The notes: a model not told the origin generated them from the letters alone. Counted from the stretch's first letter, positions 195-24,053 are shown. The stretch is DNA of 27,965 nt from Methanomassiliicoccaceae archaeon (GCA_031285205.1 JAITWO010000002.1:1-27965), one strand, 5' to 3'. Translations and numbers: made by a program.

Positions 195-1676
195 TTAATC
201 ACGCTTTGCACCGCAGATGTCGCAGTACTTCGCTTCCGGTGGGTTCTCGTCGTATCCGCATGTGTAACATTTGCGAGGTTGCAACTTCGCGCCGCAGCCC
301 TTGCACACTTTCAGATCGATCTGATTCTCGAGGCTGCACGCAGGACATATCAGCCCTTTGACACGTATCTTCTCCACCGCTGCCAACGTTGAATCGTCGC
401 ACTTCCTTTCCTCGTTGTACACACGCACCTCATACTCGCCCATCTTTCCGGAGACATCCTCCATCGGCACCCAGTTATCTCCTTTCTCCAATCTCTTCCG
501 TAAGATGTGCTGTGAGGGGTCTGCGCCGGCAGTGTACAGGCCGACGAACGCGCCGCCCTGGGCCATCCTGCCTGATACGCCTTTCACCGTGATCATCTGG
601 TAGCCCGCATGCTGACTTTTTTCTACGGAGACGGTGACCGCTGTCTCCACATCCGCCGTGACAGAAAATGCTGCACTGGCAATGAGTGTTGTATCGTCCA
701 TGCGGCCGCTGCTGAACATCCGGACCTCATGATCGCCGCCCTGCCATGGCGCTATGAATTTGACCTGGGTGTACCCTCCTGTCTGTACATCCTCCGGGTA
801 CTGCTTCTGCGTATGTTCACTGTGGGGTGCGCCCGTGGGCACGAGGATCGCCACCGCCCCTTCCTTCTTCATCTGCTGCGTCAGCCCGATGACGATCGCA
901 TGGATGGTCTCGCCCCCTTCATATTTACTCCCGGCCGATATGCTCACGCCTGAGTATGGTACTTTCATTCCCTGAGGTCCGGCCGGCCGTGCCGCGGCCG
1001 CAGGCTGTGGCGCTCCCTGCCCTTTTAACATGGCCGCATATTCCGGAGGAAGCGATGCCAGGTATTCCGGGGGGAACATGGCCGCATATTCCGGAGGGAT
1101 GGCGGAAGGCTGTTGCGCTCCCGGACCTGCGCCGACAGTGGGTTGGGGAGGGGGAGATTGTCCCATCTTTCCTCCGCACTCGCCGCAGAACGTCACTTTC
1201 GTCTTGTTCATGTAGCCGCATGACTGACACTCGTATTTTGACGGCCCCGGCTGCGGGGCCGGGGGCTGCATCGCTGCCTGGTTCTTCATTATGGCCATCT
1301 GTTCCGGCGGGATCATGGACATGTATTCCTTAGGGATCATGGACATGTAATCCTGAGGGACTGCATCCGGCTGTTGTGTTCCAGGACCTGCGAAGGCTGC
1401 GGACGGTGCCGCGGCAGCTCCCCGCTTGCTTCCGCACCCTCCGCAGAACGCCGCCGATGCGTTATTTGTGTGCCCGCACGCCGGGCATTTGGCGGGTTGC
1501 TGCGCATCCAGCTTTCCGCCGCATCCGCTGCAGAACCTTGCCCCCGGCGTGTTGGTGTGGCCGCATGACTGACATTTGGCCGAGGGCTGTTCGATCTTTC
1601 CGCCGCATCCGCTGCAGAACCTTGCCCCGTCTGTGTTGCTGTGCCCGCATGCGGAACAGGTCAGGCTCATTGTCAT
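195..1676 (-). CDS. Zinc-ribbon array protein (6 ribbons, PPEY-rich linkers, 2 beta-rich domains)
   Basis: 493-aa ORF with six Cys4 ribbons: CSACGHSNTDGARFCSGCG, CQSCGHTNTPGARFCSGCG, CPACGHTNNASAAFCGGCG, CQSCGYMNKTKVTFCGECG, CPACSLENQIDLKVCKGCG, CYTCGYDENPPEAKYCDICG. Two beta-rich domains (aa ~243-340 and ~346-440) are paralogous to those of 1681..2625. Only a 4-nt gap separates it from the upstream gene. No TM segment or signal peptide seen. Confidence 0.8.
   Translation of the reverse strand: MTMSLTCSACGHSNTDGARFCSGCGGKIEQPSAKCQSCGHTNTPGARFCSGCGGKLDAQQPAKCPACGHTNNASAAFCGGCGSKRGAAAAPSAAFAGPGTQQPDAVPQDYMSMIPKEYMSMIPPEQMAIMKNQAAMQPPAPQPGPSKYECQSCGYMNKTKVTFCGECGGKMGQSPPPQPTVGAGPGAQQPSAIPPEYAAMFPPEYLASLPPEYAAMLKGQGAPQPAAAARPAGPQGMKVPYSGVSISAGSKYEGGETIHAIVIGLTQQMKKEGAVAILVPTGAPHSEHTQKQYPEDVQTGGYTQVKFIAPWQGGDHEVRMFSSGRMDDTTLIASAAFSVTADVETAVTVSVEKSQHAGYQMITVKGVSGRMAQGGAFVGLYTAGADPSQHILRKRLEKGDNWVPMEDVSGKMGEYEVRVYNEERKCDDSTLAAVEKIRVKGLICPACSLENQIDLKVCKGCGAKLQPRKCYTCGYDENPPEAKYCDICGAKRD
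972..1367 (-). repeat. Low-complexity P/A/Q/M linker with tandem PPEY and EYMSMIP motifs, inside CDS 195..1676
   Basis: Protein aa ~104-235 contains DYMSMIPKEYMSMIPPEQMAIM and IPPEYAAMFPPEYLASLPPEYAAML. At DNA level there is an exact 23-nt direct repeat, aacatggccgcatattccggagg, at 1027-1049 and 1075-1097 (48-nt offset). A 16-nt repeat, ggatcatggacatgta, occurs at 1310-1325 and 1334-1349 (24-nt offset). Confidence 0.6.
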
Positions 1677-2637: not shown

Positions 2638-3411
2638 TTAAACTCTGCCTCCGCAGCCTCCGCAGAACTTCGTTCCGGGATCGTTCTGGAAGCCGCATGC
2701 CGAGCATTTTCCGCTTGGCGGGGCCGGAGGTGCAGGAGGTGCCGCCTTCAGGTCCAGTCCGCAGTTGTTGCAGAAGCGGACGTTGGGAGAATTCTTTGCG
2801 CCGCACTTCGGGCAAGATGCCTGTTCCATGTTCGCCCCGCAGTTGTTGCAGAACTTACCGGTTCCCGCCTGTTTGCCGCACTGCGGGCATATGGTCGTCT
2901 TGCTCTCGATCTTTCCGTCCCATACGACGGCGGTGGCCGCCTTCTCGTCGATGTTGCGCTTCATGGCACCAGCCGCGGCCTTTGCCACGTAAACTTCCTG
3001 CCTGGGGGCGCATCCTGTGCACAGTCCCGCATCCTCGTTCCAGCACTGGTCGCAGACGTAGTTGTTATCTCCGGGGCATTTGTGGAAGTGCTTCTTCGAC
3101 TCGTTCTGTGCTTTCACGAACGCATTCTCGTGCTCCTTGTGCCACTCCGGCGTCATACCCTCGAAACGCTCCGAGTATATGCTCGTTGTATCCGACGCTG
3201 CGTTGGCCGCCGTGGCCGTACGGCCGCCCACAAGGCTCCCGCCTATCCTGGCCAGCCCGCCGAATAGCTTGCTTGCCTTCTTCTTCTTGAATGTCTCCGA
3301 TTCTATGAAACTTGATTTGTACCCGTCACCGCAGGCGTCGCAGTTAAATGTGAACTGGAAGCCGGCCTCGGTACTGTTGTCGTTGTAATTCTTTGTGAAT
3401 GCCTGAAGCAT
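2638..3411 (-). CDS. Zinc-ribbon protein (Cys-rich N-terminal domain plus 3 C-terminal ribbons)
   Basis: 257-aa ORF. C-terminal ribbons are CPQCGKQAGTGKFCNNCG, CPKCGAKNSPNVRFCNNCG and CSACGFQNDPGTKFCGGCG, separated by a PPAPPAPP linker. The N-terminal ~190 aa has further Cys clusters (FNCDACG; HKCPGDNNYVCDQCWNEDAGLCTGC). Gaps are 1 nt to the upstream gene and 12 nt to the downstream gene. Confidence 0.75.
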   Translation of the reverse strand: MLQAFTKNYNDNSTEAGFQFTFNCDACGDGYKSSFIESETFKKKKASKLFGGLARIGGSLVGGRTATAANAASDTTSIYSERFEGMTPEWHKEHENAFVKAQNESKKHFHKCPGDNNYVCDQCWNEDAGLCTGCAPRQEVYVAKAAAGAMKRNIDEKAATAVVWDGKIESKTTICPQCGKQAGTGKFCNNCGANMEQASCPKCGAKNSPNVRFCNNCGLDLKAAPPAPPAPPSGKCSACGFQNDPGTKFCGGCGGRV

Positions 3412-3412
3412 G

Positions 3413-5992: not shown

Positions 5993-6020
5993 CTTATCAT
6001 CTTTGGTGTAATCTGCGACG

Positions 6021-6028
6021 TTATAAAA
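6021..6028 (-). promoter_or_regulatory. TATA-box-like element upstream of tyrS
   Basis: Minus-strand TTTTATAA spans about -36 to -29 relative to the tyrS ATG (5992). This spacing is compatible with a very short leader. Confidence 0.35.
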
Positions 6029-6221
6029 CGATATTGGCGTTCCGTGCCGTATTCGGCAGACCGATCATCCCTGAGGCTCGGACCGATGGTATCGTCCATC
6101 ATTCGAACATATCCGCATGCGTCCCCGTTCTTATGAGGAACAGGACCGGCTGATCCTGACACGATCCGAAGATCGGGCCTTCGTGTAATGTCTGGTTTTC
6201 AGCGGACGTAGTATAATTGTA

Positions 6222-7556
6222 GTGAGCGCTTTTTATCTGCGCCTGTGCACAGTGCCATCAGTGGAAGCGGAGATCATCGTGTTCGTGGCGATCATGAGCG
6301 CCGCCGGGGCATCGGCAGGCATGTTCTCGGGCCTTGTGCCCGGGATACATGTGAACACGTTGGCGTCGATGATGCTCATCCTCTACCCTTCGATGAATGC
6401 GACAATATCATCGTTCGCCGACCCTGCATACGTTCCCGTTCTGCTCTCATCGTGTATCGTATCCGCATCAGTGGTCCATTCGTTCGTCAGTTACGTTCCG
6501 TCTGTGTTCACCGGCGTGCCCGATCAGGATAACGTCATGAGCATGCTTCCCGGGCATCGGCTCCTGCTTGACGGGAAAGGGATGATCGCGGTCAGGGCGT
6601 CCGCCATAGGCAGCCTGATAGGAGGTATGAGCGCCGTGATGGTTGCGATACCGTTGCAGTACTTGATGCTCAACGGCCTCGGCGGATATTTGGAAAGTAT
6701 AACGTCCGTTGTGCTCATGATCGCCGTCGTCGCGCTTATCCTGAGCGAGACGACGCCGGGGAAATGGGGATATGCTGCCTCCCTGGTCCTGATCTCCGGG
6801 GCAATGGGGTGCATATGCATGTTCATGCCCGTCCCGTACCATGGTCTGCTGTTCGACGGTGAGCTCCTTTTCCCGCTGCTGACCGGTCTTTTCGGGATCC
6901 CTGTGCTGATATCGTCACCTTCCGGTGCCGAGATGCCTGAGCAGACCGACGATGACCGTCATCCCGTGTCCGTGTCGTCCGGACTGAAGGGTGTGCTCAC
7001 CGGCAGCGCCGTCGGGTGGTTCCCGGGGATCACGGCCACGGCGGGTGCGGCATTCACCAGATTGTTCATCCGCGAGGACAGGCCGGAGAGGTTCATCGCG
7101 TTGGTATCGTCCATCGGCACGGCGGCCGTGGTCTTTGCGCTGATCACCCTTTCCGTAAGCGGGAAGGGACGTTCGGGAACGATGATGGTGGTGCGTGAGA
7201 TACTCGGCGGAAGCATGACGGGACCCGCGGACGGCATATTCCTGTTGATGCTGCTCAGCGTCGCTGTCGCCTCTTTCATCGGATATCTTGCCGCCATACG
7301 GTCGGGGAGGGGCATGGCAGGATTCATATCAAAAGTGAACATGAAAAAGATGAACATGACGATCCTGGCCGTGATCGTCGTTCTTGTTCTGCTCATGACG
7401 GGGGCGTGGGGGATCGCAGTTCTCGCGATATCTGCGATCGTTGGGATGATACCGATCAGCGCCGGCACTGCCAGGGTCCACCTTTCGGGGTGCCTGCTGG
7501 TGCCGGTCCTGCTGATGCAGTTCGGGCTTGACGCGGCATTCCTGTCCCTGTTATGA
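6222..7556 (+). CDS. Polytopic membrane protein, TctA/DUF112-like permease (start uncertain: GTG 6222, GTG 6261 or ATG 6294)
   Basis: Hydrophobic throughout, with roughly 10-12 predicted helices by eye. It has two P-G loops resembling the duplicated TctA motif: GLVPGIHVNTLASMML and GWFPGITATAGAAFT. Confidence 0.5.
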   Translation: MSAFYLRLCTVPSVEAEIIVFVAIMSAAGASAGMFSGLVPGIHVNTLASMMLILYPSMNATISSFADPAYVPVLLSSCIVSASVVHSFVSYVPSVFTGVPDQDNVMSMLPGHRLLLDGKGMIAVRASAIGSLIGGMSAVMVAIPLQYLMLNGLGGYLESITSVVLMIAVVALILSETTPGKWGYAASLVLISGAMGCICMFMPVPYHGLLFDGELLFPLLTGLFGIPVLISSPSGAEMPEQTDDDRHPVSVSSGLKGVLTGSAVGWFPGITATAGAAFTRLFIREDRPERFIALVSSIGTAAVVFALITLSVSGKGRSGTMMVVREILGGSMTGPADGIFLLMLLSVAVASFIGYLAAIRSGRGMAGFISKVNMKKMNMTILAVIVVLVLLMTGAWGIAVLAISAIVGMIPISAGTARVHLSGCLLVPVLLMQFGLDAAFLSLL

Positions 7557-8489
7557 TCAGCGCCTGCAGCAGCGCCTTCCCTTGACCGAATCGTAGTACC
7601 ATTTGTCGTACTTGTAGCAGATGACATCCTTCTTTACGTAAGATACATCCTCCTCCGCCCCGGACGAGCAGCATCCGGCCTCTGCCTCCTCCAGCGCATC
7701 CTTTACTTCCGCGATCACTTCTTTTATCCTTGCGGTGTTCGTTACCGTTGTCTTCTTGACCTCGGTGATCGTCGCCTCGACCTCGGCCATCAGGTCCTTT
7801 ATGCTCTCCATGAGCTCGCTGACCTTCGCCGCTTCCGTTATGTTCGCCTTTCTGACGATCGTTATGGTCTCTCTCACCTCGGCGATCACTTCTTTTATCT
7901 CAGTGTTATCGATCATCGCCGGCTCCGTCTCCTCGATCGGCTCCGTCTCAGGTTTGTTGACGCTCTTCTTGGGCTCCGCCTTCTTCTGCTCCCCGATCTT
8001 GGCGAACGGTTTGCCGCTTGTCACGATCTCCCTGATACGCTTGTCCTGCCTGAGCTTGAAGAATAACATGAATGTATCAAAGGCGTCGACCGATGCAAGG
8101 ATGTCATCGTCGAATGACTCCCTCTTCCACGCGCCGTATCTCCAGTCGACAGCGTGCGAGTGCCTCAGGTCGCCCTTCCTTCCGTCGTACTCATATGCAC
8201 CCGTTATCTCACCCACGTTCAGGAGCCTGTCGGAACCCGCCCCGGGGACTATTACCAGGTCACCCACTTTCACTTTCGAGGAGAATGCGCGTCCCTGCAC
8301 GGACATCGTCGTTATCGATCCGTCGGGCTCGTTGGGGTATGCTTTGGCCATCAGCGCCATGAGCTCCGGCATGTCCGTCTTACCCGTTAAATTCGCGTTC
8401 AGGTTGCCGATAAGGAATATCCTGTTCTGATCGGCGAACTTGCCCTCGTATTCTCCCTTCAATCCTGCCCTGCATAGCCAAACTGTCAT
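7557..8489 (-). CDS. Hypothetical protein: N-terminal beta-barrel-like domain, IKEVIAEV coiled-coil repeat, Cys-rich tail
   Basis: 310-aa ORF with GGGAGGA upstream of ATG 8489. The N-terminus (MTVWLCRAGLKGEYE...VGDLVIVPG...NVGEITGAYEYDG...HAVDW) resembles, from memory, the N-terminal module of some Mrr-type restriction endonucleases, but no nuclease motif follows. An 18-nt repeat gcgatcacttcttttatc at 7711-7728 and 7882-7899 encodes the duplicated IKEVIAEV. The tail is CCSSG...CYKYDKWYYDSVKGRRCCRR. Confidence 0.6.
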   Translation of the reverse strand: MTVWLCRAGLKGEYEGKFADQNRIFLIGNLNANLTGKTDMPELMALMAKAYPNEPDGSITTMSVQGRAFSSKVKVGDLVIVPGAGSDRLLNVGEITGAYEYDGRKGDLRHSHAVDWRYGAWKRESFDDDILASVDAFDTFMLFFKLRQDKRIREIVTSGKPFAKIGEQKKAEPKKSVNKPETEPIEETEPAMIDNTEIKEVIAEVRETITIVRKANITEAAKVSELMESIKDLMAEVEATITEVKKTTVTNTARIKEVIAEVKDALEEAEAGCCSSGAEEDVSYVKKDVICYKYDKWYYDSVKGRRCCRR

Positions 8490-10210: not shown

Positions 10211-10831
10211 TTACTTCTCGACGCTGCGTGCGAGCTCCTTGACCTGAACGATGCATTCCTTTATCCTCTCGAGGCTTCCCGAACGTGTGTCCAGTTTCAG
10301 TTTCAGGCCATCGGCCATATCTTTCGCCTTCTGATGATAGAACTCATCGTTCCCTATCCCGGAGTTTATGAAAAGGCAACGTTGATACGATTCGAACATC
10401 AGGTCGAGGAAGTACTGCGGCTCGTACCCTTCCGCAGAGTCCAGGTGGAACTGTTCTATCAGCCCGGGAACTCCCTGTACCGCCCACCCGGGGGACGCGA
10501 ACCAAGTGAACACACATTTCTTCTTCTCTTCTTTCACGCCGTCGGGGCTCAGCAGGACCTCTATGCAGTCGGCACCGGGCAGCATGACCGCCGGGACCTT
10601 GAACACATCTGTCACGCCCTGAAGGGACTGACATGTTGCGTATCCCAGAAGCACCGCATCCACTTCGCTGTGCAATGCGTTCACCTTCTCGATTATCAGC
10701 TTCTTCATCTCCTCCGCATGCTCGTGCAATGCGAACTTCAGATAATCGCGGTGAACGAAGTCCGGATCATCCTTTGTCAAGAATTCTATCTCATCCTTCA
10801 AAACTTCGCATGCAACGATACCTATCCTCAT
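10211..10831 (-). CDS. DUF1638-like protein
   Basis: MRIGIVACEVLKDEIEFL at the N-terminus is typical of DUF1638 (recognised from memory). Start is set at ATG 10831 because it forms an ATGA overlap with the stop of the upstream gene (10828-10831). Confidence 0.55.
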   Translation of the reverse strand: MRIGIVACEVLKDEIEFLTKDDPDFVHRDYLKFALHEHAEEMKKLIIEKVNALHSEVDAVLLGYATCQSLQGVTDVFKVPAVMLPGADCIEVLLSPDGVKEEKKKCVFTWFASPGWAVQGVPGLIEQFHLDSAEGYEPQYFLDLMFESYQRCLFINSGIGNDEFYHQKAKDMADGLKLKLDTRSGSLERIKECIVQVKELARSVEK

Positions 10832-11178
10832 GTCTCGCCGCCTGTCCATTTTTCATCATAGATGACGGAATTGTGCTTCGCCTTCTTCGCGTGCCGCTCG
10901 GACAACATCTCATATTCCATCCACACCGCATGCACCACCGCATTCGTCACCAGGCATACGAACCCTATCGCCCCTCTTATCTCCGGGTCATTTAGTTTGC
11001 TTTTGTAAAAGTCGGTAACGTCGGTAACGGTCAGGCCTTTAAGCTTCTTACCAAAGTCCTGTATCTTCTCGCAATCCGAATCAATATGCACATCAACGCT
11101 TCCTTCTTCGTTCATCTCCGCTGTTATCACATGTGTCTTCTCACATGTGTTCATCTTCACCTTGATAATTGATGTCAT
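10828..11178 (-). CDS. Hypothetical small protein (116 aa)
   Basis: Start is set at ATG 11178, preceded by GGAGAGGGA (minus strand, 11181-11189). It is translationally coupled to the DUF1638 gene. No motif recognised. Confidence 0.5.
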   Translation of the reverse strand: MTSIIKVKMNTCEKTHVITAEMNEEGSVDVHIDSDCEKIQDFGKKLKGLTVTDVTDFYKSKLNDPEIRGAIGFVCLVTNAVVHAVWMEYEMLSERHAKKAKHNSVIYDEKWTGGET

Positions 11179-11309
11179 TCTCCCTCTCCGTGCCTGATCT
11201 GCGCTCATATCGAATATTATCTATATATTGTCTGCTGTCCTGCCCGTTCTGACAGCGGATGTTCCTGCTGTGCCGTTGTGCATGATATCACGATGATCTT
11301 ACAAAAAGT

Positions 11310-11319
11310 GATTTAACAA
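11310..11319 (+). promoter_or_regulatory. TATA-like box GATTTAACAA, 30 nt upstream of the paralog-A ATG
   Basis: The same box and the same spacing occur upstream of paralog B (13908-13917). No Shine-Dalgarno sequence lies between box and ATG. The geometry fits a leaderless or near-leaderless archaeal mRNA. Confidence 0.4.
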
Positions 11320-11339: not shown

Positions 11340-13853
11340 ATGGGTTACACAGAAGTCCCTGACACAGGGAAGATATTGGAGATCGCTAAGAAATATTATG
11401 AATGGGCGGAGCCGATGATCAAGGCCGGCAGGCCCCAGTTCAATAAGGCGGTCAACTGGAGCCCGAAGTTCGACGGTAAAAAGAAAGATCATAGGAAGGC
11501 CTCCTCCTTATCGTGCGATACCGCCATGGTGGGAACGCTCGGAGGGATGGGCACCATGACTGTGGCCCTGGCGTGCGCCGCGTTCGACCTGGCCTTCGAT
11601 ACCGTCAAGATATCGCAGAACCTTGGCTGCGCCATTGCGATATTCTGCGACAATAACGATGACCCTGACATCATCGCCAAAGAGAAGGAGATATACGAGG
11701 ATGCGGTGACGGTCCTTATCTATGCCCTCTCCCTATCAATGGTCGGTAGCATTCACACCGAAGCAAGCCTCGGTCCGCTTGTCGCCCTCGGCAATTTGTA
11801 TATGGATATGGAGAGGTACGAAGAGGCTAAGGAATTGTTCATGACCGCGCGCCGGATAGACGAATTGTACATGCCCGCACTGAACGGCCTCGCAGCATAC
11901 TACAAAGCAACGAACAAACCTCAGTTCGCCGTCATGATTAAGACCGCCGCGAAGAGCAACCCGACCACTCTCGGGAAGTCCCTGAACAAGATCGGTGAGA
12001 ACAACAAGAAGGCGGAAAAGATATTCAGAGAGGGGGCGGCCGCCAGTGACGAGGAACTTGAGAAAGAGATCGACAAGGCAGAGGAGATAGAGGCTCCCAA
12101 TTACGGGGACATCTTTGACGGCGTCGACCCGAAGAACGCCGAGAAGATGCGGAAGAACAGGAAGGATCTCAACAACAGGATGAAGATCAAGATCCCGAAC
12201 ATACACATACTCACTGCGTTCACGGACATCAACAAAGATAATCAAATCTCCGTCAAATGCGCCGCCGAAGCAGTATCTGATGAGCTCAAGCACCTGCAGA
12301 AATATATCAAGGCGTTATCTAGAGGGAGCGGGAACACGGCCGCGGACGCATTTGAGAATACCGGGATAGGTGATTTCAAGTTCATGGGCATGGACTTCCA
12401 TGAATTTATCAGGGATGCATCGAACAACCCTGCGAAATATGAGAACATGGATACTCGGGATGAGGTCCACCTCCGGACCGACAATCTGGACAAGTACATA
12501 AAAGAACTGAAGGACGGCCTCGGCGAGATAACTGCCGCCCGTCACGGCATGGAAGGAGGGGACAGATTCGGCAGAAAGTTCTCAAGGGCCGCCGCCAAGG
12601 CGAACCTGCTGTTATTCCCTTTCTCTCTGGACCCGTTGAAGTACGCCAATATGTGGGATGTGTTCATACAGCAGTGCAATATCCCGTTATATATCAAAAA
12701 GAAGGCCCTATTGGATGCATATATGATGGGCGTGATGAGAAAATCAAATGAAACGATAACGGACATACAGAGGAACTTTTCCAGAGAGTACGCGGAGATC
12801 CATGAGGCATACGACGCAAAGATGGAAGACCTTAAGGAAAGGTACGACAGAGAGGTGAAGGCATGCGGAGACAATTCTGGTTGCACTTCAGCGGCGGCCA
12901 AACGATATGAACTGAACCTGCACAAACTGCATCTGGAATATTATCCGCAGCTGAACCAGTGCACGAAGAGATACTGGCTCGAGGGAACGGCATGCGCCGC
13001 CATAATGTACGGGAAACTGGAAAGGAACATACCACGGATGTACAAGGAAGTGATGAAACATCTTGTGTACATCTCCGATGAGAAGGTGCGGGCCGAACAG
13101 GAGGACATGCTCGTTGGGGGCATAGCGTCAACCCTCACACATGCCATCGGCCTGGTGCTGAGTACGTACGGCGGAGGGGAGATACTAAGGATAGAGATGT
13201 GCGGATGCGACCCCGAAAGGATGGAACAGCTTACCAAGGAGCTGCAGAAAGAGAAGGAGGAGAAGGATGCCGAGATGCAGCAACGTCAGAAGGCGGCGGA
13301 GAACGCCTTTAAGAACGGCATCATAGATGAAAACTCCTCGTACTACAAGGACTATGTCAAAAAGTGGGAGTATGAGATCGACCTGGTCATTTTCAAATAC
13401 AGGTCCAATGATTATTTCACGACCGGGGATGTGAGCATCCCGACCCCGGTCGGCTCCATTGACGCTTCATCGTTCAGGAACAACATCACACAGGAGTCCA
13501 GAGTCAGTGCGGACGTTACGATCGGCGGGGAGATCGGGCCGGTGGAGCTCAAGGCCACTTTCGGGATCTCCGTCGCATGGGACGCGAACGGAAGGATGCA
13601 CCCGGAGGGATTCGACTTGCGGGCCGGACTTGAGGCGTCGACGGGCGTGGGTCCGCTGTCGGCCACGGCAGGCGTCTCGGCGTCCCTGGAGAGAGGCACG
13701 AAGGTGTATGGCGAGGTAACGTTAAGCGGGAACGATTATATCGATGAGATGAAGGAGCGGGCATTAGGGGAGGAGTTCGGAGGGCTGGCCCCCGAAATGG
13801 ACAACACCATCAAGCTGTGGACGGGGGACTACGTGATCACAGACAAGAATTAA
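11340..13853 (+). CDS. Large orphan protein, paralog A (837 aa): helical/TPR-like N-terminal part, coiled coil, beta-rich C-terminus
   Basis: Long ORF, collinear with 13938..16760. In the conserved block 13038-13118 versus 15678-15758 (MYKEVMKHLVYISDEKVRAEQED[M/I]LVG) I count 11 synonymous and 1 non-synonymous differences in 27 codons, which indicates purifying selection. TPR-like segment LVALGNLYMDMERYEEAKELFMTARRID. No catalytic, TM or signal motif recognised. Confidence 0.8.
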   Translation: MGYTEVPDTGKILEIAKKYYEWAEPMIKAGRPQFNKAVNWSPKFDGKKKDHRKASSLSCDTAMVGTLGGMGTMTVALACAAFDLAFDTVKISQNLGCAIAIFCDNNDDPDIIAKEKEIYEDAVTVLIYALSLSMVGSIHTEASLGPLVALGNLYMDMERYEEAKELFMTARRIDELYMPALNGLAAYYKATNKPQFAVMIKTAAKSNPTTLGKSLNKIGENNKKAEKIFREGAAASDEELEKEIDKAEEIEAPNYGDIFDGVDPKNAEKMRKNRKDLNNRMKIKIPNIHILTAFTDINKDNQISVKCAAEAVSDELKHLQKYIKALSRGSGNTAADAFENTGIGDFKFMGMDFHEFIRDASNNPAKYENMDTRDEVHLRTDNLDKYIKELKDGLGEITAARHGMEGGDRFGRKFSRAAAKANLLLFPFSLDPLKYANMWDVFIQQCNIPLYIKKKALLDAYMMGVMRKSNETITDIQRNFSREYAEIHEAYDAKMEDLKERYDREVKACGDNSGCTSAAAKRYELNLHKLHLEYYPQLNQCTKRYWLEGTACAAIMYGKLERNIPRMYKEVMKHLVYISDEKVRAEQEDMLVGGIASTLTHAIGLVLSTYGGGEILRIEMCGCDPERMEQLTKELQKEKEEKDAEMQQRQKAAENAFKNGIIDENSSYYKDYVKKWEYEIDLVIFKYRSNDYFTTGDVSIPTPVGSIDASSFRNNITQESRVSADVTIGGEIGPVELKATFGISVAWDANGRMHPEGFDLRAGLEASTGVGPLSATAGVSASLERGTKVYGEVTLSGNDYIDEMKERALGEEFGGLAPEMDNTIKLWTGDYVITDKN

Positions 13854-13907
13854 TGATGCTGCCTCGCATTGATCGTTTCGGGACCCCGGTGGTGAGGTGC
13901 GAGAAGG

Positions 13908-13917
13908 GATTTAAGAA
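13908..13917 (+). promoter_or_regulatory. TATA-like box GATTTAAGAA, 30 nt upstream of the paralog-B ATG
   Basis: Identical position and near-identical sequence to 11310-11319. This implies that paralog B has its own promoter within the 84-nt spacer. Confidence 0.4.
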
Positions 13918-13937
13918 GAGAGCATATATAGAAGATC

Positions 13938-16760
13938 ATGGACGGCGCACTGACCCTCGGTAACGAGAGAATATTGAAGATCGCCAAAAAATATTATGAT
14001 TGGGCGAAGCCGATCATCTCCCTCGGCAAGAACGAGTTCAAAAAAGCTGTAGATTGGGTCCCGGAGTTCGACGGCAGGAAAAATGATGTCGAGAAGGCCG
14101 GTACATTATCATTCGATACCGCAATGCTCGGAACCTTTCCCGGGACGGGGACCATAACTGTTGCCTTTGCGTGCGCCGCATTCGACCTCGCCCCCGAAAG
14201 CGTGGTCATGTCACAGAATCTGGGCTCTGCTATCGCACTGTTCTGCGACAACAGTCCCGACCTCAGCATCAAAGAGAAAAAGAAAGAGATATACGAGGAT
14301 GCGGCGGCGGTCCTGATCTATGCCGTCTCTTTGTCATTATCTGAAGACATGTACACTGAGAAAAGCCTCGGACCGCTGGTGGCCCTCGGCAATCTGTTCT
14401 TGGATATGGAGAAGTACGAAGAAGCGAAGCATCTGTTCACGACCGCACGCAGACTGGACGAAACATACATGCCGGCGGTGGAGGGCCTTGCGGCGTATTA
14501 TAAGGCTGTGAAGAAGCCTCAGCTTGCCGGGATGGTCCGTGAGGGTGCGAAGAAGAACCCCACCGGCTGCGGGAGATCGGCCAATGAGATCGATAAGAAT
14601 GTCAAAAAGGCCACCGAGATATCACAGAAAGGGGATGCCAACGAGGAGGAGATGGAAAAGGATATGGATAAAGCCGAAACGGTGGAGGCACCCAATTACG
14701 GCGATCTCTTTGACAGCATCGACCAGGCGACCGCCGCGAAGATCAGGAACAACAGGAAGGAACTGAACAACAGGATGGTCATCACCGTCCCGAACCTCGA
14801 CATACTTTTTCCGTTCACGGATATCACCGAAGATAATCAGATCTCGGTCAAATCTGCCGTCGCTGCAGTAGCTGAGGAAATACCTAAATTGATCAAATAC
14901 ATGAAAAGGCTCCCGATAGGAGCAGCGCACAGGGATGCGGACATACTCGAGAATACGGGGATCGGCGATTTTTACGTCAGGGGCATGAAATTTCATGACT
15001 TTATGCGTGATGCGGCGAACAACCCCCAAAAATATGAAGACAGTAAAATCAACGCAGAAGGCAAAATACGGACGGACAATGCCAATAAATTCATAAAGGA
15101 TATAAAAGACGGCATCGCTGAGACCACTGCCGCCCGTCACGGCATGGAGGGTGGGGACCGATTTGGAAAGAACCTGATGAGGACCGCCGCGAAGGCGGAA
15201 GCGGTGCTCTTCCCGCTGTCCCTGAATCCGTTCAAATATGCTAACGCATGGGATATCCTCCTCCAGCAGTACAATGCCATGCCCCTGATCAGAAAAAGAA
15301 CACTGCTTTTCGGATATATGGCCGAGATACTAAGGAAAAGATCGAAAATATTATTTGAAGTACAACGGAATTATCACAGAGAGTACGGTGAGATCAATGA
15401 CATATTCAAAAGAGAATTGGACGACCTTAAGGAAAGGTACCAAAAACAGATAGACATCATAAACAAAATGATAAGTGACTGTGATGATCAAGGATGCGGA
15501 CGTTGCAAGAGCTTATCAAAGCGGATAGATGATCTGTCCGATCAACATGAAGTGGATAAACATAAGTTGCATTTGAAATACTACCCGCAGCTCAATCAAT
15601 GCACGAAGAGATTCTGGCTTGAAGGTACCGGGGTCGCTATCGTAATGTACAAGAAACTGGAAAGGAACGCACCGCGGATGTACAAAGAGGTGATGAAGCA
15701 CCTCGTGTACATCTCCGACGAGAAAGTACGTGCGGAGCAGGAGGACATACTCGTTGGGACCATAGCGCAGAGTATCGCAAGCGCCATAGGGCTGGTCCTG
15801 GGGGCATACGGCATGGGAGAGATACTCAGGATCGAGCAGTGCGGATGCGACTTCCAAGCGACGGATGAGCTCGAAGAGAGACTGAAGAAGGAGAAGAAGG
15901 AGAAGGATTATGAGATGCTCATGCGCCAGAAGGCGGCACGGGACTCATTCAAGAGCGGTGCGGTGGATGAGAACTCTGCGTTCTACAAGAACTATCTCAA
16001 ACAGTGGGAATACTCGTTCGATGTCGGCTTTTTCAAATATAAGGTCAACGACCACTTCACCACGACCCATCTGAACATAGATCTCAAGCTTGGATCCTTC
16101 GACTACTCATCCTTTCAAAGCAATATCACGAAGGCAGGCAGTGTGAAAGCTGACCTCACTCTCAAATTGGAGAAACAGGGCGTGGATGTGAAGGGTGAGG
16201 CCACATTCGGCTTCACGTATGTCTGGGACAAGAACGGGAATCCTCATCCGGACGGTTTTGACCTGCGTGCCGGTCTTAAAGCAACGGCGAGCTTGGGGCC
16301 GATCGAGACTGAGATCGGCATATCTTCATCCGTTCGGGAGGGTTTCAACGCGACTGCCGGGGCAAAGGTCTCAGGTGAGCAAGGGCCGGTCAGTGCCGAG
16401 GTCGGTGTGACGGCATCCACTAAGGACGGCGTTGACGCGAATGCCGAATTAGTAGTTTCAGGAGAGTATGGGCCGGCCACGGGCGATGCAAAAGTATCAG
16501 TGTCCACTAAGGACGGCGTTGACGCGAGTGTCAGTGCCGAGGTTTCCGGCAGCAAAGGTCCCCTCCAGGGCGAGGCAAAGGCGTCAGCATCCCTCCAGGG
16601 AGGTGTGAAGGCGTCCGCCGAGGCCAAGATGAGCGGGAACGAATATATTGATGCGCTGAAGGAGGCGGCCTTAGGAGAGACGCTTGCAGAGAACATCTCT
16701 TTGCCAAATTTTGACCGTGAACTATGGGGCGGCGAGTACTCCTCCAAGGGCGATGAGTGA
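13938..16760 (+). CDS. Large orphan protein, paralog B (940 aa), with expanded C-terminal 29-aa repeats
   Basis: Collinear with paralog A. Shared blocks include ILxIAKKYYxWAxP, DTAMxGT, ACAAFDLA, NYGDxFD, ENTGIGDF, AARHGMEGGDRFG, YPQLNQCTKRxWLEGT, GEILRIExCGCD, DENSxxYKxYxKxWEY and GFDLRAGL. It is about 100 aa longer because of the repeats at 16371-16631. Confidence 0.8.
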   Translation: MDGALTLGNERILKIAKKYYDWAKPIISLGKNEFKKAVDWVPEFDGRKNDVEKAGTLSFDTAMLGTFPGTGTITVAFACAAFDLAPESVVMSQNLGSAIALFCDNSPDLSIKEKKKEIYEDAAAVLIYAVSLSLSEDMYTEKSLGPLVALGNLFLDMEKYEEAKHLFTTARRLDETYMPAVEGLAAYYKAVKKPQLAGMVREGAKKNPTGCGRSANEIDKNVKKATEISQKGDANEEEMEKDMDKAETVEAPNYGDLFDSIDQATAAKIRNNRKELNNRMVITVPNLDILFPFTDITEDNQISVKSAVAAVAEEIPKLIKYMKRLPIGAAHRDADILENTGIGDFYVRGMKFHDFMRDAANNPQKYEDSKINAEGKIRTDNANKFIKDIKDGIAETTAARHGMEGGDRFGKNLMRTAAKAEAVLFPLSLNPFKYANAWDILLQQYNAMPLIRKRTLLFGYMAEILRKRSKILFEVQRNYHREYGEINDIFKRELDDLKERYQKQIDIINKMISDCDDQGCGRCKSLSKRIDDLSDQHEVDKHKLHLKYYPQLNQCTKRFWLEGTGVAIVMYKKLERNAPRMYKEVMKHLVYISDEKVRAEQEDILVGTIAQSIASAIGLVLGAYGMGEILRIEQCGCDFQATDELEERLKKEKKEKDYEMLMRQKAARDSFKSGAVDENSAFYKNYLKQWEYSFDVGFFKYKVNDHFTTTHLNIDLKLGSFDYSSFQSNITKAGSVKADLTLKLEKQGVDVKGEATFGFTYVWDKNGNPHPDGFDLRAGLKATASLGPIETEIGISSSVREGFNATAGAKVSGEQGPVSAEVGVTASTKDGVDANAELVVSGEYGPATGDAKVSVSTKDGVDASVSAEVSGSKGPLQGEAKASASLQGGVKASAEAKMSGNEYIDALKEAALGETLAENISLPNFDRELWGGEYSSKGDE
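16371..16631 (+). repeat. Three in-frame 87-nt (29-aa) tandem repeats in the paralog-B C-terminus
   Basis: The units are SGEQGPVSAEVGVTASTKDGVDANAELVV, SGEYGPATGDAKVSVSTKDGVDASVSAEV and SGSKGPLQGEAKASASLQGGVKASAEAKM. An exact 25-nt core, tccactaaggacggcgttgacgcga, occurs at 16416-16440 and 16503-16527 (87-nt offset). Confidence 0.65.
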
Positions 16761-16842: not shown

Positions 16843-17160
16843 ATGAACGATCGCTATATTGACGATGCACGTGTATTCAAAGCGTTCTGTGACGAGAACC
16901 GTCTGAAGATATTGGAGATGTTACAGAGCGGCGAGAAATGCGCATGCATACTCCTGGAACGGATGGACATATCACAGCCGACGTTATCGCATCATATGAG
17001 GATACTTTGCGACAGTGGGATCGTCGTTCCACGCAAAGATGGTAAGTGGACCCATTACTCGATAAGCTCTGAGGGACGCGATAACGCCATGGACCTTCTA
17101 TGCCGACTTACCAACCTCATACCCAACGGCGAATGCTGCACCGAGAGGTGCTTCGAATGA
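16843..17160 (+). CDS. ArsR/SmtB-family transcriptional regulator
   Basis: FKAFCDENRLKILEMLQSGEKCACILLERMDISQPTLSHHMRILCDSGIV is a canonical ArsR winged-HTH with a Cys-x-Cys metal-sensing-type site. GAGGG lies 6 nt upstream of the ATG. The stop overlaps the hgcA start (ATGA, 17157-17160). Confidence 0.9.
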   Translation: MNDRYIDDARVFKAFCDENRLKILEMLQSGEKCACILLERMDISQPTLSHHMRILCDSGIVVPRKDGKWTHYSISSEGRDNAMDLLCRLTNLIPNGECCTERCFE

Positions 17161-18158
17161 GCGATCGTTGCTGCGGGAACGATCCGGCGGGAATAATGAG
17201 AGCTGATACGGTCATGACATTCAGGGACCGCCTCGGTGCGCTGAAGGTGCGGTGCGGGATAGGACGCAACAATTACAAGGTAACACCCGGGCTGTATGCA
17301 TTGGGAAGTCCTGATGACAAGTCCGCAGTGTTCGTCAGCGCTAATTATAAACTAACGTTCGACAGCCTGCGGAAGGAGCTTTCGGGGATGGACTGCTATA
17401 TTCTGATATTGGATACGAAGGGGGTGAATGTCTGGTGCGCCGCAGGGAAGGGCACGTTCGGGACCGATGAATTAGTGAGTCGCATCGAAAAGACGGGGCT
17501 TGCGGGCATTGTGTCCCACAGAGAGCTCATTTTGCCGCAGCTCGGTGCATCCGGGGTATGTGCGCATAATGTAAAAAGGCGCACCGGCTTCGAAGTGATC
17601 TACGGCCCGGTGCGCGCATCCGATATCAAGAAGTTCATAGCGGCCGGGATGGATGCTGACGATGATATGAGGGCGGTCAGATTCACAACACGTGACCGTA
17701 TCGTCCTCGTGCCGATGGAGTTCATCCCGGCGATGAAGTTTTCTTTACCGATATTCGGGATACTTTTCCTTGCCAATATGATCCTCAGGGAACCTTTCGG
17801 TATAGAGGACCTTGCGACATACATGTGCGCTCTGGCTGCGGGCGCGGTCCTCACACCTGTCCTTCTTCCTATTATACCCGGAAGGGCGTTCTCGCTTAAA
17901 GGATGGATCGTAGGCATTCTGCTGACGCTGTTCGCAGTATGGCAATTCGGGTGGCTTCAGGATGACATCATCGTTGCATCTGGCTATCTGCTCCTTATTC
18001 CTTCGGTGTCCGCATACTTCGCGATGAACTTTACAGGTTCATCAACTTACACGTCCCCGTCCGGGGTGCTGAAGGAGATGAGGTTTGCCGTTCCATTCAT
18101 CCTCATCACCGTGATCATAGGATCGATATTGCTGTTCATAGGGAAGGTGATCGTATGA
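17157..18158 (+). CDS. hgcA: Mercury-methylation corrinoid protein HgcA
   Basis: The hallmark cap-helix motif GVNVWCAAGKGTFGT is present (N-V-W-C-A-A-G-K at 17427-17450, Cys codon 17436-17438, residue 94 from the ATG at 17157). The corrinoid-binding domain is followed by about 5 C-terminal TM helices. Start trimmed from the ORF-track 17100 to the ATGA-coupled ATG. Confidence 0.9.
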   Translation: MSDRCCGNDPAGIMRADTVMTFRDRLGALKVRCGIGRNNYKVTPGLYALGSPDDKSAVFVSANYKLTFDSLRKELSGMDCYILILDTKGVNVWCAAGKGTFGTDELVSRIEKTGLAGIVSHRELILPQLGASGVCAHNVKRRTGFEVIYGPVRASDIKKFIAAGMDADDDMRAVRFTTRDRIVLVPMEFIPAMKFSLPIFGILFLANMILREPFGIEDLATYMCALAAGAVLTPVLLPIIPGRAFSLKGWIVGILLTLFAVWQFGWLQDDIIVASGYLLLIPSVSAYFAMNFTGSSTYTSPSGVLKEMRFAVPFILITVIIGSILLFIGKVIV

Positions 18159-18439
18159 GATATATCAGGAACGTTGTAACGCTTCAGCTGGACGTAAAAA
18201 AATGCCTGGGGTGCAGGAGATGCGAGGAGGTCTGCCCGCACCGCGTCTTCGCGATGAACGATATGAAGGCGTCCATAAAGGACAGGGATGCGTGCATGGA
18301 GTGCGGCGCATGCGCTCTGAACTGTCCCACTCGTGCCATATCCGTGAAACCGGGTGTCGGGTGTGCAGCGGCGATAATAAAGGGGATGCTCACCGGAAAG
18401 GAGCCGAGCTGTGACTGCTCCGATGATGGTTGCTGCTGA
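18155..18439 (+). CDS. hgcB: Mercury-methylation ferredoxin HgcB (2x[4Fe-4S])
   Basis: Two C-x2-C-x2-C-x3-CP motifs (CLGCRRCEEVCP, CMECGACALNCP) and a Cys-rich C-terminus ending in a CC pair (SCDCSDDGCC). ATGA overlap with hgcA at 18155-18158. Confidence 0.85.
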   Translation: MRYIRNVVTLQLDVKKCLGCRRCEEVCPHRVFAMNDMKASIKDRDACMECGACALNCPTRAISVKPGVGCAAAIIKGMLTGKEPSCDCSDDGCC

Positions 18440-18599
18440 TCGCTCCGATGATCATGTGATCTGTCTTATTAAGTTGTAGAATATGAATTAGAGAGGCAGG
18501 AAAGGGAGCCGAAAGGGCAACATAGAACGGAGGATGTCATAGAAAACGGAAAAATAACGCAACATGTCACAAATACAGGTGAGCCGGTAGATATTAAAG

Positions 18600-18672
18600 T
18601 GGGCCTGTCCAGATTTGAACTGGAGTCAATAGCACCCCAAGCTACAAGGATACCAAGCTACCCCACAGGCCC
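18600..18672 (-). tRNA. tRNA-Pro (anticodon GGG), no encoded CCA
   Basis: Minus strand reads GGGCCTG-TG-GGGT-AGCTTGGTA-TCCT-T-GTAGC-TTGGGGT-GCTAT-TGAC-TCCAG-TTCAAAT-CTGGA-CAGGCCC-A. There is a 7-bp acceptor stem and a 5-bp anticodon stem. The anticodon loop has U33, GGG and G37. The T-loop is canonical TTCAAAT. One 13:22 mismatch occurs in the D stem. Confidence 0.85.
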
Positions 18673-21389: not shown

Positions 21390-21925
21390 TGCCGTCGATC
21401 GATTATATCATAGATGCGGTTAAAGACGCTGTCGCCGCCGTCGACCCGAAAGCGGTGGATGAACTGATAGATAATATCATACACTCCAAGACCGTCTTCG
21501 TGTTCGGAGTGGGGAGGTCGGGGCTGGCGGGGCAGTTCTTCTGCGTCAGATTGGTCCAGATGGGCCTGGATGTGCATTTTGTCGGTGAGATGACGACGCC
21601 GATAATAACCAAGGATGACCTTACGATACTCATCTCCGGTACCGGAAATACGATGTCGGCCGTTCAGACGGCGAACATAGCCAGACGCATCGGTTCTAAG
21701 GTCATGGCGGTCACCGCCCGGGCTGATACGAAACTTGCGATAGCATCCGATTCGGTCATTCTGCTTCCGGAGGCCAGGGATAAAGAGAGATCAAAATATG
21801 CGCCGCTCGGCACCATATTTGAAAATGCGGCCGTCCTTTTCCTGGACAGCATAGTACCGATGATAATGGAACGCCTTGGGCTCACGGAATCTGACATGAG
21901 GAAGCGTCACGCCATCTGGGTGTGA
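21389..21925 (+). CDS. hxlB: 6-phospho-3-hexuloisomerase (PHI, SIS domain)
   Basis: VFVFGVGRSGLAGQFFCVRLVQMGLDVHFVGEMTTP...DLTILISGTGNT...KYAPLGTIFENAAVLFLD...RH matches archaeal PHI (MJ1247-type, as I recall that sequence) along the whole length. Confidence 0.85.
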   Translation: MPSIDYIIDAVKDAVAAVDPKAVDELIDNIIHSKTVFVFGVGRSGLAGQFFCVRLVQMGLDVHFVGEMTTPIITKDDLTILISGTGNTMSAVQTANIARRIGSKVMAVTARADTKLAIASDSVILLPEARDKERSKYAPLGTIFENAAVLFLDSIVPMIMERLGLTESDMRKRHAIWV

Positions 21926-22425
21926 TCCTCCAAGACCACCATCGATGCTTCCGTTGTGCCGTCAGCTGAGCCTTTGAATACCTTCATCTCTTCCTTCATC
22001 GGGTCTATGACCATCGCGAACCCCGTTTCTCCGAACGCCGCCTTATGTGTGCTCTTATCGGTCTCTGACATGAAGCACCCTATCCCCAGATGAGAATGGT
22101 ACCATCCTACTATCACATACTCGAAATCGAGGTTGTCCAGTGCATCGAACAGCGTCACCATGTCATCAGGGTCGAAACGCACGCTTACCTCGTCCGATAT
22201 GAGCGCCGACGTGACCGCTTTGCTCACTGTTGCGTAATACCCGCCGTCATCCCTGTACACATGCCCCGCCAGGAGTCCCATGACCTCCGCGTTCTCATTC
22301 ATCCCTTTCTCAGCGTGGTCAAGCATGTCGCATATCGCCCCCTCTGAGACAAAGATGTCGGCATTCACCGCCCTTCTGCGTTCGGGTATGTCCGCGGCCG
22401 TGTGCTGTGTTATGAGTGGCATCAT
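21907..22425 (-). CDS. JAB/MPN+ (JAMM) metalloprotease, Rpn11-like deubiquitylase candidate
   Basis: Glu in NAEVMGLLAG and the complete JAMM motif H-S-H-LGIGCFM-S-ET-D (H-x-H-x7-S-x2-D, 22057-22098). ATGA overlap with the E2 stop (22422-22425). Confidence 0.85.
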   Translation of the reverse strand: MMPLITQHTAADIPERRRAVNADIFVSEGAICDMLDHAEKGMNENAEVMGLLAGHVYRDDGGYYATVSKAVTSALISDEVSVRFDPDDMVTLFDALDNLDFEYVIVGWYHSHLGIGCFMSETDKSTHKAAFGETGFAMVIDPMKEEMKVFKGSADGTTEASMVVLEDHTQMA

Positions 22426-22910
22426 TTGCTCCCGAAGCTCACGTACGCATTAATCTTTGTCTCGTTGTCCATATAGAACCTTGATGATTCCATACATATC
22501 TCAAGACCGAACGGGTTCGATATGTTCGGACTTCCCACAAGATTCTCCACTGCCTTCATGAATGACAGCAGCGTGGAGCCGAATGACCACTTATCAAGCA
22601 GTTTTATGCAGACGTACCCTCCGTCCTCAGGCGGCATGATGTTCGGATGGAATATCGGCGTCTCCCACCTTGCCCTCGGCTTCTCGAAGGGATATTCCTC
22701 ATTTATCACCACTTTGTACCTGTGGTCCTTTATCTGCACCACCTCATCATCCGTCTTAGCGTATGCGGGAACATTGGTCATGTTCACGGTTATCTCTATC
22801 GGAAATGTCACCTTGTCCGGGTCGAACCGTATGTCCGACCCTATGTAGCCGGAGCACCTCTCCAGCTCATTGGTCAGTCTTTTTATCAGCACCGGTCGCG
22901 GAAGCCCCAA
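22422..22910 (-). CDS. UBC-fold ubiquitin-conjugating enzyme (E2)
   Basis: N-terminal helix RLTNELERC, PFEKPRARWETPIFHPNI (HPN at 22641-22649), catalytic-type Cys in DGGYVCIKLLDKW (Cys101, codon 22608-22610), then SPNISNPFG. The order and spacing match eukaryotic E2 core signatures. The ATG directly abuts the Ubl stop. Confidence 0.85.
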   Translation of the reverse strand: MGLPRPVLIKRLTNELERCSGYIGSDIRFDPDKVTFPIEITVNMTNVPAYAKTDDEVVQIKDHRYKVVINEEYPFEKPRARWETPIFHPNIMPPEDGGYVCIKLLDKWSFGSTLLSFMKAVENLVGSPNISNPFGLEICMESSRFYMDNETKINAYVSFGSK

Positions 22911-23150: not shown

Positions 23151-23152
23151 TC

Positions 23153-23923: not shown

Positions 23924-23945
23924 CTGTTCTAACAACGCCGCCGTA

Positions 23946-23953
23946 GTATAATA
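23946..23953 (-). promoter_or_regulatory. TATA-like box (TATTATAC on minus strand) 30 nt upstream of the E1 ATG
   Basis: It lies within the A/T-rich 23941-23990 divergent intergenic region. No Shine-Dalgarno sequence lies between the box and ATG 23923, which gives a leaderless geometry. Confidence 0.4.
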
Positions 23954-24029: not shown

Positions 24030-24053
24030 CCGCAGTGTGCATCCGTATGAATA

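Follow-up and report, generated by a model that had tools for sequence, protein, structure and literature searches.

A tandem gene pair of a Methanomassiliicoccaceae archaeon in a rare, mainly bacterial family of probable envelope proteins

Here we analysed a 27,965-nucleotide stretch of DNA from a Methanomassiliicoccaceae archaeon (GCA_031285205.1, JAITWO010000002.1:1-27965; the window), which carries two long adjacent genes, A and B, on the same strand. Around them lie genes of archaeal ribosomal proteins (S9, L13, L18e) and genes of methanogen type. Both products have 100% matches in NCBI/JGI, which are entries of a Methanomassiliicoccaceae metagenome-assembled genome (MAG), and the label given there to A is 'tetratricopeptide repeat protein'. 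Coordinates of the genes and of the features described below are collected in Table 1. From the evidence that follows, A and B are very likely an old tandem duplication within an undescribed, rare family that consists mainly of exported bacterial envelope proteins and whose archaeal clade lacks export signals.

The two genes are separated by 84 nt. BLASTP aligned their products collinearly throughout, with 464/836 identities (56%, E=0), and every sequence block from which an earlier note had recognised A and B as collinear same-strand paralogs was present. That note had also proposed that both copies are kept by selection, and whole-gene Nei-Gojobori counts agree: the proportions of synonymous and non-synonymous differences (pS and pN) are 0.60 and 0.26, dS is ~1.2 (near saturation), dN is 0.33, and dN/dS is ~0.27. 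In all 60-codon windows save one variable region pN is lower than pS, and different codons are used at 192 of the 474 residues identical between A and B. In one 27-codon block (PRMYKEVMKHLVYISDEKVRAEQED[M/I]L), a single non-synonymous difference had been counted and was found again, while the synonymous codon differences number 12 and not 11. Neither open reading frame (ORF) contains a frameshift or stop, and constraint is seen in both, so there is no sign that one copy is decaying into a pseudogene. Given the dN/dS ratio, the near-saturated dS and the codon differences, A and B are old, intact tandem copies, both under purifying selection.

The genes had been described as orphans, which proved wrong. 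A word-indexed search of 5.8 billion clustered proteins returned 14 close members including A and B, 11 of the others in Methanomassiliicoccaceae-type contigs. Three of the 14 are named by their source as Methanomassiliicoccaceae MAG proteins, and annotation goes no further than 'TPR repeat protein' (TPR, tetratricopeptide repeat). An exhaustive profile search of 1.84 billion representatives gave 312 matches with E<=1e-3, of which 105 reach E<=1e-10 and 71 reach E<=1e-30. The family consists mostly of bacterial proteins with export signals; matches weaker than ~1e-20 are increasingly generic TPR proteins. A profile from a 15-sequence alignment, run against genome contigs, found only three Methanomassiliicoccaceae MAGs and one spurious TPR match. 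Related MAGs are of gut origin, such as Th196 from the gut of Termes hospes.

Nearly all non-archaeal full-length members start 40-200 residues ahead of the conserved N-terminal block. Those examined all have an N-terminal hydrophobic segment of at least ~1.9 (12-residue Kyte-Doolittle) except P0019, whose start is apparently truncated. Lipoboxes (LTSC, LTGC, LTAC, LSGC and others) occur in many of them, one member is fused to an SLH domain, and one to Cu_amine_oxidN1. Because of these signal peptides, lipoboxes and single SLH and Cu_amine_oxidN1 domains, the bacterial members are very likely cell-envelope proteins. The loci of signal-bearing members are bacterial and encode SLH surface proteins, OmpA-like, MacB/FtsX, LacI and YunB (sporulation) products and NAD-dependent DNA ligase. 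In one of them (locus L014), which also has a sporulation gene close by, the MurD encoded beside the SLH-fused member P0029 most resembles sequences of Oscillospiraceae. Thirteen archaeal sequences start only 6-10 residues before the ILxIAKKYY block and have no hydrophobic N-terminus: the 12 database sequences have neither hydrophobic segment nor lipobox, and the upstream copy of a second tandem pair (L009) starts at the same block. Since the family is broad in bacteria and forms a single clade in archaea, the most parsimonious history is that the archaeal clade probably derives from a bacterial transfer, after which the signal peptide was lost. At another bacterial locus (L013 1784-17639), the gene of P0036 belongs to a long series on one strand, most of it unannotated, whose products include OmpA-like, DUF3108-like, leucine-rich-repeat (LRR) and MORN-like proteins; this series could encode an envelope complex. 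An 811-aa protein downstream of P0036 was considered as a paralog and on comparison is not a family member.

An AlphaFold2 model of A was generated from a 13-sequence alignment, with a mean predicted local distance difference test (pLDDT) score of 77.8. The model and the family alignments divide the protein into an all-helical head, four long helices and a C-terminal beta meander. The most conserved N-terminal block (ILxIAKKYY...FDG...NLG.AIA.F.D...EIY.DA) lies within the head, as does the TPR-like unit. For A and B taken singly, the TPR_1 and TPR_2 models reach 17-20 bits (e.g. 19.7 against 27.8), below the Pfam cut-offs of 27-28. The helix pair noticed earlier is clear at family level, where TPR_2 matches 22 of the 38 members (best E 1.2e-7) and the family profile finds designed TPR proteins among PDB sequences at 1e-20. 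Foldseek placed ~150 residues of the full A model on consensus TPR proteins of the PDB (target-normalised TM-score 0.72-0.76) and also matched MamA. The TPR unit makes up ~8% of the protein; the other 770 residues match no family. Searches of Pfam, NCBIfam, PADLOC, PHROGs and PDB sequences, with Foldseek against PDB and BFVD, gave no further domain for A or B, in agreement with the earlier view that only a TPR-like segment is recognisable. Foldseek of the full model found TPR proteins only in the PDB and nothing among BFVD viral structures, and the PDB sequence searches (B alone, family profile, C-terminal profile) gave TPR proteins or nothing. Pfam on the 38 members gave only TPR and the single SLH and Cu_amine_oxidN1 fusions.

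The long helical middle that had been suspected is predicted as four helices in A, spanning residues 438-509, 513-575, 581-611 and 625-656 (72, 63, 31 and 32 residues), with the turn motifs NPxxYANxxDIxIQxxN, ISD(E)KVR and CGCD. Residues Q444, N447, Y557 and D580 are invariant in the family and C623 nearly so, and the invariant polar residues gather at helix ends (NPxxYANxxDIxIQxxN at 431-447, Y557, Y568 and ISD at 578-580). Judged by their predicted lengths, the four helices may pack into an antiparallel bundle, a stalk of ~95 Angstrom that would separate the head from the beta module. The five-part architecture proposed in the earlier note is essentially right, apart from the Cys clusters ACGDNSGC and DCDDQGCGRC, which it took to be conserved. 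They fall in a variable, gap-rich part of the family alignment, and CGC is the sole Cys motif kept family-wide. The expected N-terminal hydrophobic stretch is present at aa ~60-85, yet it contains no 19-residue window at Kyte-Doolittle 1.6; borderline hydrophobic windows occur only at aa 590-608 of A and 603-623 of B. Transmembrane helices were considered and rejected, as aa 60-85 is sub-threshold and the counterpart of the helix at aa 590-611 is amphipathic or polar in the bacterial members read. By hydropathy and N-terminal comparison, neither A nor B has a signal peptide or a convincing transmembrane helix, as had been stated.

The C-terminus had been read as an amphipathic beta module, and AlphaFold2 predicts ~10 strands there with a dyad pattern of hydrophobic and polar residues. 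W827 and G829 of the final strand are nearly invariant in the family alignment. A second model, of the last 226 residues and from 24 sequences, recovered the meander with a mean pLDDT of 73.2 and 80-89 in the core. Five central strands alternate strictly between a Val/Ala/Ile/Leu face (mean hydropathy 2.2-2.9) and a Ser/Thr/Asp/Glu/Lys/Gly face; the alternating strands are 10-13 residues long, and the hydrophobic face is poor in aromatics. Self-offset analysis peaks at 29, 58 and 87 residues, and the 87-residue insertion of B (alignment gap columns 1111-1197) corresponds to three extra hairpins. The repeat copies are only 64-82% alike at the DNA level, so the hairpin expansion is not recent. 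Across other members the beta region varies from ~160 to ~250 residues, or ~10 to ~18 strands, in steps of two. The module is thus an array that can be lengthened hairpin by hairpin, and this speaks against a compact soluble barrel whose size is fixed. When the C-terminal model was compared with the PDB by Foldseek, outer-membrane barrels (chitoporin, FhaC, OprD/OccK, AlgE, BamA) made up most of the 50 best matches. These matches are non-significant (E 0.04-0.3, best 0.038; TM-score ~0.3) and point to a curved antiparallel meander rather than to homology. A C-terminal sequence profile found no match among PDB sequences, nor did the Pfam barrel families match. An alpha/alpha-toroid lyase with a beta domain, raised by one chondroitinase match, was rejected (probability 0.15, TM-score 0.14, helices far too long).

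The earlier note had treated the pair as a two-component or heteromeric system, and had left open whether homologs always occur in pairs. Most loci hold one gene. Single copies are found at 6/8 archaeal loci (L001, L002/L003, L004, L005, L007, L008) and 5/6 bacterial loci (L011/L012, L013, L014, L015, L016), which amounts to 11 of the 14 distinct loci, or 13/16 if the near-duplicates L003 and L012 are counted. Locus L009, from the Termes hospes gut MAG, has a tandem pair of 837 and 828 aa. Its copies share 60% identity, rising to ~90% at their ends, and only 37-40% with A, which points to an independent duplication or to gene conversion between the copies. In the bacterial locus L006, P0014 is followed by a gene (4400-6844, +) for a collinear and strongly diverged paralog (~20% identity; hhalign probability 99.2%, E=5.6e-20, 688 columns). 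It has a Cys cluster (RCRGNNCIDCRK) where B has DCDDQGCGRC, and it runs off the contig end. No B-type orthologue was found among the 5.8 billion clustered proteins by word-indexed search and tree; in a neighbour-joining tree with an arbitrary root, B is basal to a clade of A and eight single-copy relatives. Tandem duplication recurs in the family, and pairing is not a family property. A heteromer in this one organism is possible.

Both genes are preceded by a B recognition element (BRE)/TATA-like element (Table 1). A purine-rich element followed by ATTTAA[GC]A occurs at equal spacing in six genes, namely A, B and the orthologues in L001, L002, L004 and L005. An archaeal BRE/TATA box at such a distance reads as the promoter of a leaderless mRNA. 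Judged by this sequence arrangement, A and B would each be expressed from their own promoter as leaderless mRNAs, and the presence of the element before both suggests that it was duplicated along with the gene. There is no upstream in-frame start codon for the family ORFs in the window; because of this and of the conserved element 30 nt before the ATG, the start codon appears genuine.

At one end of the window lie four tandem double-zinc-ribbon (DZR) genes, none of whose products has a transmembrane segment. Between their ribbons, DZR493 and DZR314 have a beta-rich domain of ~100 residues that carries no annotation and occurs twice in each protein. In L001, L002/L003, L004 and L005, the next gene upstream of the family gene, in divergent orientation, encodes an orthologue of DZR493 (341-493 aa). 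The orthologues of DZR493 share the zinc ribbons, the two ~100-residue beta-rich domains and Pro/Gln-rich linkers in which motifs such as MIPPEQLEMIKSM and LPPEYAAMLKGQ are repeated; the PPE[QY] peptides of DZR493 itself are MIPPEQMAIMKNQ and LPPEYAAMLKGQ. All retrieved DZR493 orthologues adjoin a family gene or sit within 10 kb of one. In L009, DZR259 lies just downstream of the tandem pair and matches DZR257 in length, domain position and sequence. Similar motifs occur within the family: in one bacterial subclade (P0036, P0041, P0045, P0051, P0060), 2-4 PP[EG]-type motifs (LPPEYIKMLEK, IPPEALEQIKRML, LPPGYLEQLKK) follow right after the signal peptide. Over 174,000 residues of six-frame open stretches, a PPE regular expression found only the DZR493 orthologues and P0036. 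A hidden Markov model (HMM) made from the archaeal motifs alone ranked the P0051 N-terminus top among 279,000 residues, but at E=0.33. Because of the repeated adjacency and the similar motifs fused to the bacterial subclade, the DZR proteins are candidate binding partners. The PPE-type motif may be the ligand of the family head domain, a lead comparable to a gene-fusion ('Rosetta stone') link.

Other genes at these loci were also annotated. In L002 (5287-6125), L005 (9903-11537) and L004 (4769-5656), the DZR and family genes are flanked by genes for toxin-antitoxin (PhdYeFM/ParE-YoeB), nucleotidyltransferase, Fic/Bro-N and DUF4143 proteins, which hints that this neighbourhood is variable or mobile. 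In the window, A and B have DUF1638 and DUF6951 genes on one flank; the opposite flank encodes ArsR, a CdhD-like protein and a 2x[4Fe-4S] ferredoxin. Homologs at other loci do not have any of these genes beside them. A 310-aa protein without a Pfam match is matched in residues 1-204 by the PADLOC candidate defence family PDC-S02 (E=3.8e-31), and its C-terminal half consists of a repeat rich in Glu and Lys that ends in a Cys-rich tail. A tRNA-Pro gene separates the ferredoxin gene from the ribosomal-protein cluster. The window also carries a complete ubiquitin-like conjugation cassette, in which only the ThiF/E1 gene has PADLOC matches; PADLOC found none for the ubiquitin-like, E2 and JAB/MPN genes.

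Table 1 Positions of genes and features in the window, counted from its first nucleotide.
Feature	Coordinates	Strand	Basis or remarks
BRE/TATA-like element of A	11303..11319	+	AAAAAGTGATTTAACAA; GATTTAA core begins 30 nt 5' of ATG
Gene A (P0001)	11340..13853	+	837 aa; ORF and translation; minimal beta module
Helical head of A, aa 1-430	11340..12629	+	All-helical; DSSP of AlphaFold2 model and family alignments
TPR-like helix pairs of A, aa 141-206	11760..11957	+	Sub-threshold Pfam, family-level matches, Foldseek
Four long helices of A, aa 438-656	12651..13307	+	AlphaFold2 secondary structure
Beta meander of A, aa 678-833	13371..13838	+	10 antiparallel amphipathic strands predicted (AlphaFold2), the last KLW.G.Y
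Hairpin repeat array of A	13608-13739	+	1.5 units
BRE/TATA-like element of B	13901..13917	+	GAGAAGGGATTTAAGAA; GATTTAA core begins 30 nt 5' of ATG
Gene B (P0006)	13938..16760	+	940 aa; ORF and translation; paralog of A, enlarged beta-hairpin array
B counterpart of TPR region	~14358-14555	+	Approximate, from ungapped BLASTP stretch
Hairpin repeat array of B, aa 773-903	16254..16646	+	4.5 tandem 29-residue units, G[FV]D.....VSG..GP.........S.KD
Four tandem double-zinc-ribbon genes	195-3856	-	493, 314, 257 and 147 aa
DZR493	195..1676	-	Zinc-ribbon protein; five [ILF]P[PK]E[QY] motifs at nt 1038-1337; candidate partner
DZR257	2638..3411	-	Second zinc-ribbon protein
PDC-S02-like protein	7557-8489	-	310 aa
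DUF1638, DUF6951	10211-11208	-	Flank of A/B
ArsR, CdhD-like protein, 2x[4Fe-4S] ferredoxin	16843-18439	+	Other flank of A/B
tRNA-Pro (GGG)	18599-18672	-	
Ubiquitin-like conjugation cassette	21907-24163	-	Complete
JAB/MPN	21907-22425	-	
UQ_con/E2	22422-22910	-	
Ubiquitin-like protein	22911-23150	-	79-aa ORF ending ...PDPEGG before the stop (Gly-Gly tail)
ThiF/E1	23153-24163	-	Weak PADLOC E1-E2 and BilD matches, E ~1e-8 to 3e-6

As a whole, the explanation that we tentatively favour, at slightly less than even chances, is that A and B are diverged tandem copies of an envelope-type family gene that act as peptide-binding scaffolds or adaptors. In such a scaffold the TPR-containing head would bind short helical peptide motifs, the best candidate being the PPE[QY]-type motif, offered in trans by the archaeal DZR proteins and in cis by the bacterial subclade, whose own N-terminus bears it. 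The hairpin array, with its one face of small hydrophobic residues, could serve self-association or attachment to a membrane or surface. Duplication would have given two variants with unequal beta arrays that perhaps co-assemble, without the family needing two partners. Taken by itself, this mechanism, a peptide-binding scaffold in which the head binds the PPE-type motifs of DZR proteins and the array mediates association or attachment, is less likely still, and far less secure than the placement of A and B in the family.

Several points weigh against the scaffold reading and its details. No significant match bears on function, and the stalk geometry is deduced from helix lengths only. The motif link is statistically weak, as the E value of the top HMM match indicates, and the PPE expression was derived from sequences that it then found. 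Adjacency to DZR genes may partly be inherited synteny, as L002, L003, L004 and L005 share an aconitase-flanked block; in the window the DZR genes lie 7.5 kb from A, with seven unrelated genes between. The direction of transfer depends on breadth of distribution and on the arbitrarily rooted tree. It is also unclear how the same activity in the archaeal cytoplasm could be squared with an extracytoplasmic bacterial family.

The hairpin array could instead insert into membranes as a beta-barrel or pore, alone or as an oligomer, either as a resident outer-membrane barrel of diderms comparable to TPR-plus-porin proteins or as a pore-forming tip on the helical part. The strict alternation in strands of 10-13 residues, the preponderance of outer-membrane barrels among the top C-terminal Foldseek matches and the variation from ~10 to ~18 strands by twos all fit, since outer-membrane barrels are thought to have grown by two-strand steps. 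In one subclade that has signal peptides, the conserved last strand ends in [YF]-x-[FL] at the extreme C-terminus, which resembles the beta-signal of outer-membrane proteins. Two membranes have also been reported for Methanomassiliicoccus luminyensis (PMC10673518). These arguments meet non-significant fold matches, a module profile that finds nothing in the PDB, and a hydrophobic face of Val/Ala/Ile/Leu with few aromatics. A Sec signal is present in bacterial relatives and absent from A, B and the rest of the archaeal clade, which thereby lack a signal peptide that could take them to an outer compartment; many of the bacterial proteins are tethered by lipid or SLH anchors and not released. As for the hosts, the window is archaeal, the host of P0029 is Oscillospiraceae-like and would be monoderm, and another subclade has OmpA-like neighbours, which suggests diderms. 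The archaeal and the apparently monoderm clostridial members (L014) make a resident outer-membrane barrel unlikely as a general role, and we regard a barrel or pore as unlikely overall. A related idea is that the family is a new class of membrane-acting helical proteins with beta-hairpin repeats at the tip, which termite-gut-type Methanomassiliicoccaceae took over from bacteria and redeployed without a signal peptide alongside PPE-motif zinc-ribbon proteins. Its beta array would then insert into or coat a membrane from the cytoplasmic side, or help to build the second membrane that some members of this wall-less order reportedly have. This is highly improbable in our view; if true, it would be a candidate beta-barrel-type membrane protein in archaea, and a rare one.

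An obligate A+B heteromer, in which the two paralogs form one functional complex like two-component toxins or paired structural subunits, would explain why both copies are intact, under purifying selection and adjacent on one strand. It would also suit the independent pair in L009 and the diverged paralog after P0014, and it would cover the hydrophobic face of an open amphipathic sheet, which must be covered in some way. Yet the gene stands alone at most loci, B has no orthologue among the clustered proteins searched, A and B have separate promoter-like elements, and their beta arrays differ by six strands and so would offer no face-to-face match; the heteromer is quite unlikely, and the evidence does not support it as the defining feature of the system. 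A further reading, which we consider very unlikely, is that of a surface adhesin-like 'eukaryote-like protein' whose TPR binds a host or partner. TPR proteins have been counted as adhesion factors in host-associated Methanomassiliicoccales, with a non-significant trend to more of them in the host-associated clade (PMC7883539). Export and anchoring signals are seen in the bacterial relatives, which lie among SLH surface proteins, and the related MAGs come from guts. The archaeal proteins, however, have no signal peptide, transmembrane segment or anchor, their start codon is backed by the conserved promoter-like element, and the TPR unit is a small part of the chain. The least probable reading is a defence or toxin effector that disrupts the membrane from the cytoplasm with the zinc-ribbon protein as sensor. 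It could draw on the PDC-S02-like candidate defence gene 3 kb upstream of A, on the toxin-antitoxin, Fic, nucleotidyltransferase and DUF4143 genes beside orthologues in L002, L004 and L005, and on the repeated lineage-specific duplication and variable repeat number, which would be typical of conflict genes. Against it, A and B have no meaningful PADLOC or PHROG match (PADLOC gave noise only, JetB at E 0.008 and the ZorA coiled-coil tail at E 0.0018), L001 and the window place the genes amid housekeeping genes, and the dN/dS ratio indicates no overall diversifying selection. The peptide-binding scaffold remains the reading that we prefer.

The family comprises proteins of ~850 residues, of which only the one TPR unit is covered by Pfam, NCBIfam or PDB. 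It is new to annotation databases; a new kind of mechanism is not evidenced, and the value lies in the annotation and the hypotheses. The DZR neighbourhood and the PPE-type motif give a partner hypothesis for two otherwise blank protein families, and the 29-residue amphipathic hairpin of variable number is a model for how beta-sheet modules grow. The distribution also raises the question of what role the architecture of an envelope protein has inside a wall-less gut archaeon.

The family can be compared with several known systems. Relative to generic TPR proteins, A has a TPR-like unit at aa 141-206, but the label fits only ~8% of the protein. ClyA/Hbl/Nhe and XaxAB/YaxAB are alpha-pore-forming toxins, and XaxAB and YaxAB are encoded as adjacent paralog-like pairs. 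Like toxins of the ClyA/XaxAB type, A and B are predicted to be long helical molecules, one end of which bears a small beta or hydrophobic element. Unlike them, A and B are about twice the size and have a TPR head and a C-terminal repeat array instead of an inserted tongue; pairing is not conserved, and no ClyA-like fold was matched in PDB sequence or Foldseek searches. OmpM and SlpA are outer-membrane tethers with the order SLH, coiled coil and beta-barrel. P0029 has the same order of an N-terminal SLH domain, a helical region and a C-terminal beta module. However, its host resembles a monoderm Clostridium relative, no porin family is matched, and the helices are predicted to run back and forth in one chain, which would differ from a parallel trimeric coiled coil. 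PgaA, BcsC and PelB, AlgK with AlgE, and Slam/DUF560 are TPR-plus-beta-barrel envelope proteins. The family shows no significant sequence or fold match to these proteins, the beta module of A has only ~10 strands, and a long helical segment lies between the TPR unit and the beta part. No polysaccharide-synthase operon lies near the bacterial loci examined, and among the hosts are an Oscillospiraceae-like bacterium and archaea, which lack a classical outer membrane. What the bacterial members share with such TPR-plus-barrel proteins is a Sec signal, an N-terminal TPR helical region and a C-terminal all-beta antiparallel meander, and AlgE and other outer-membrane barrels are among the best, albeit weak, fold matches of this C-terminal module.

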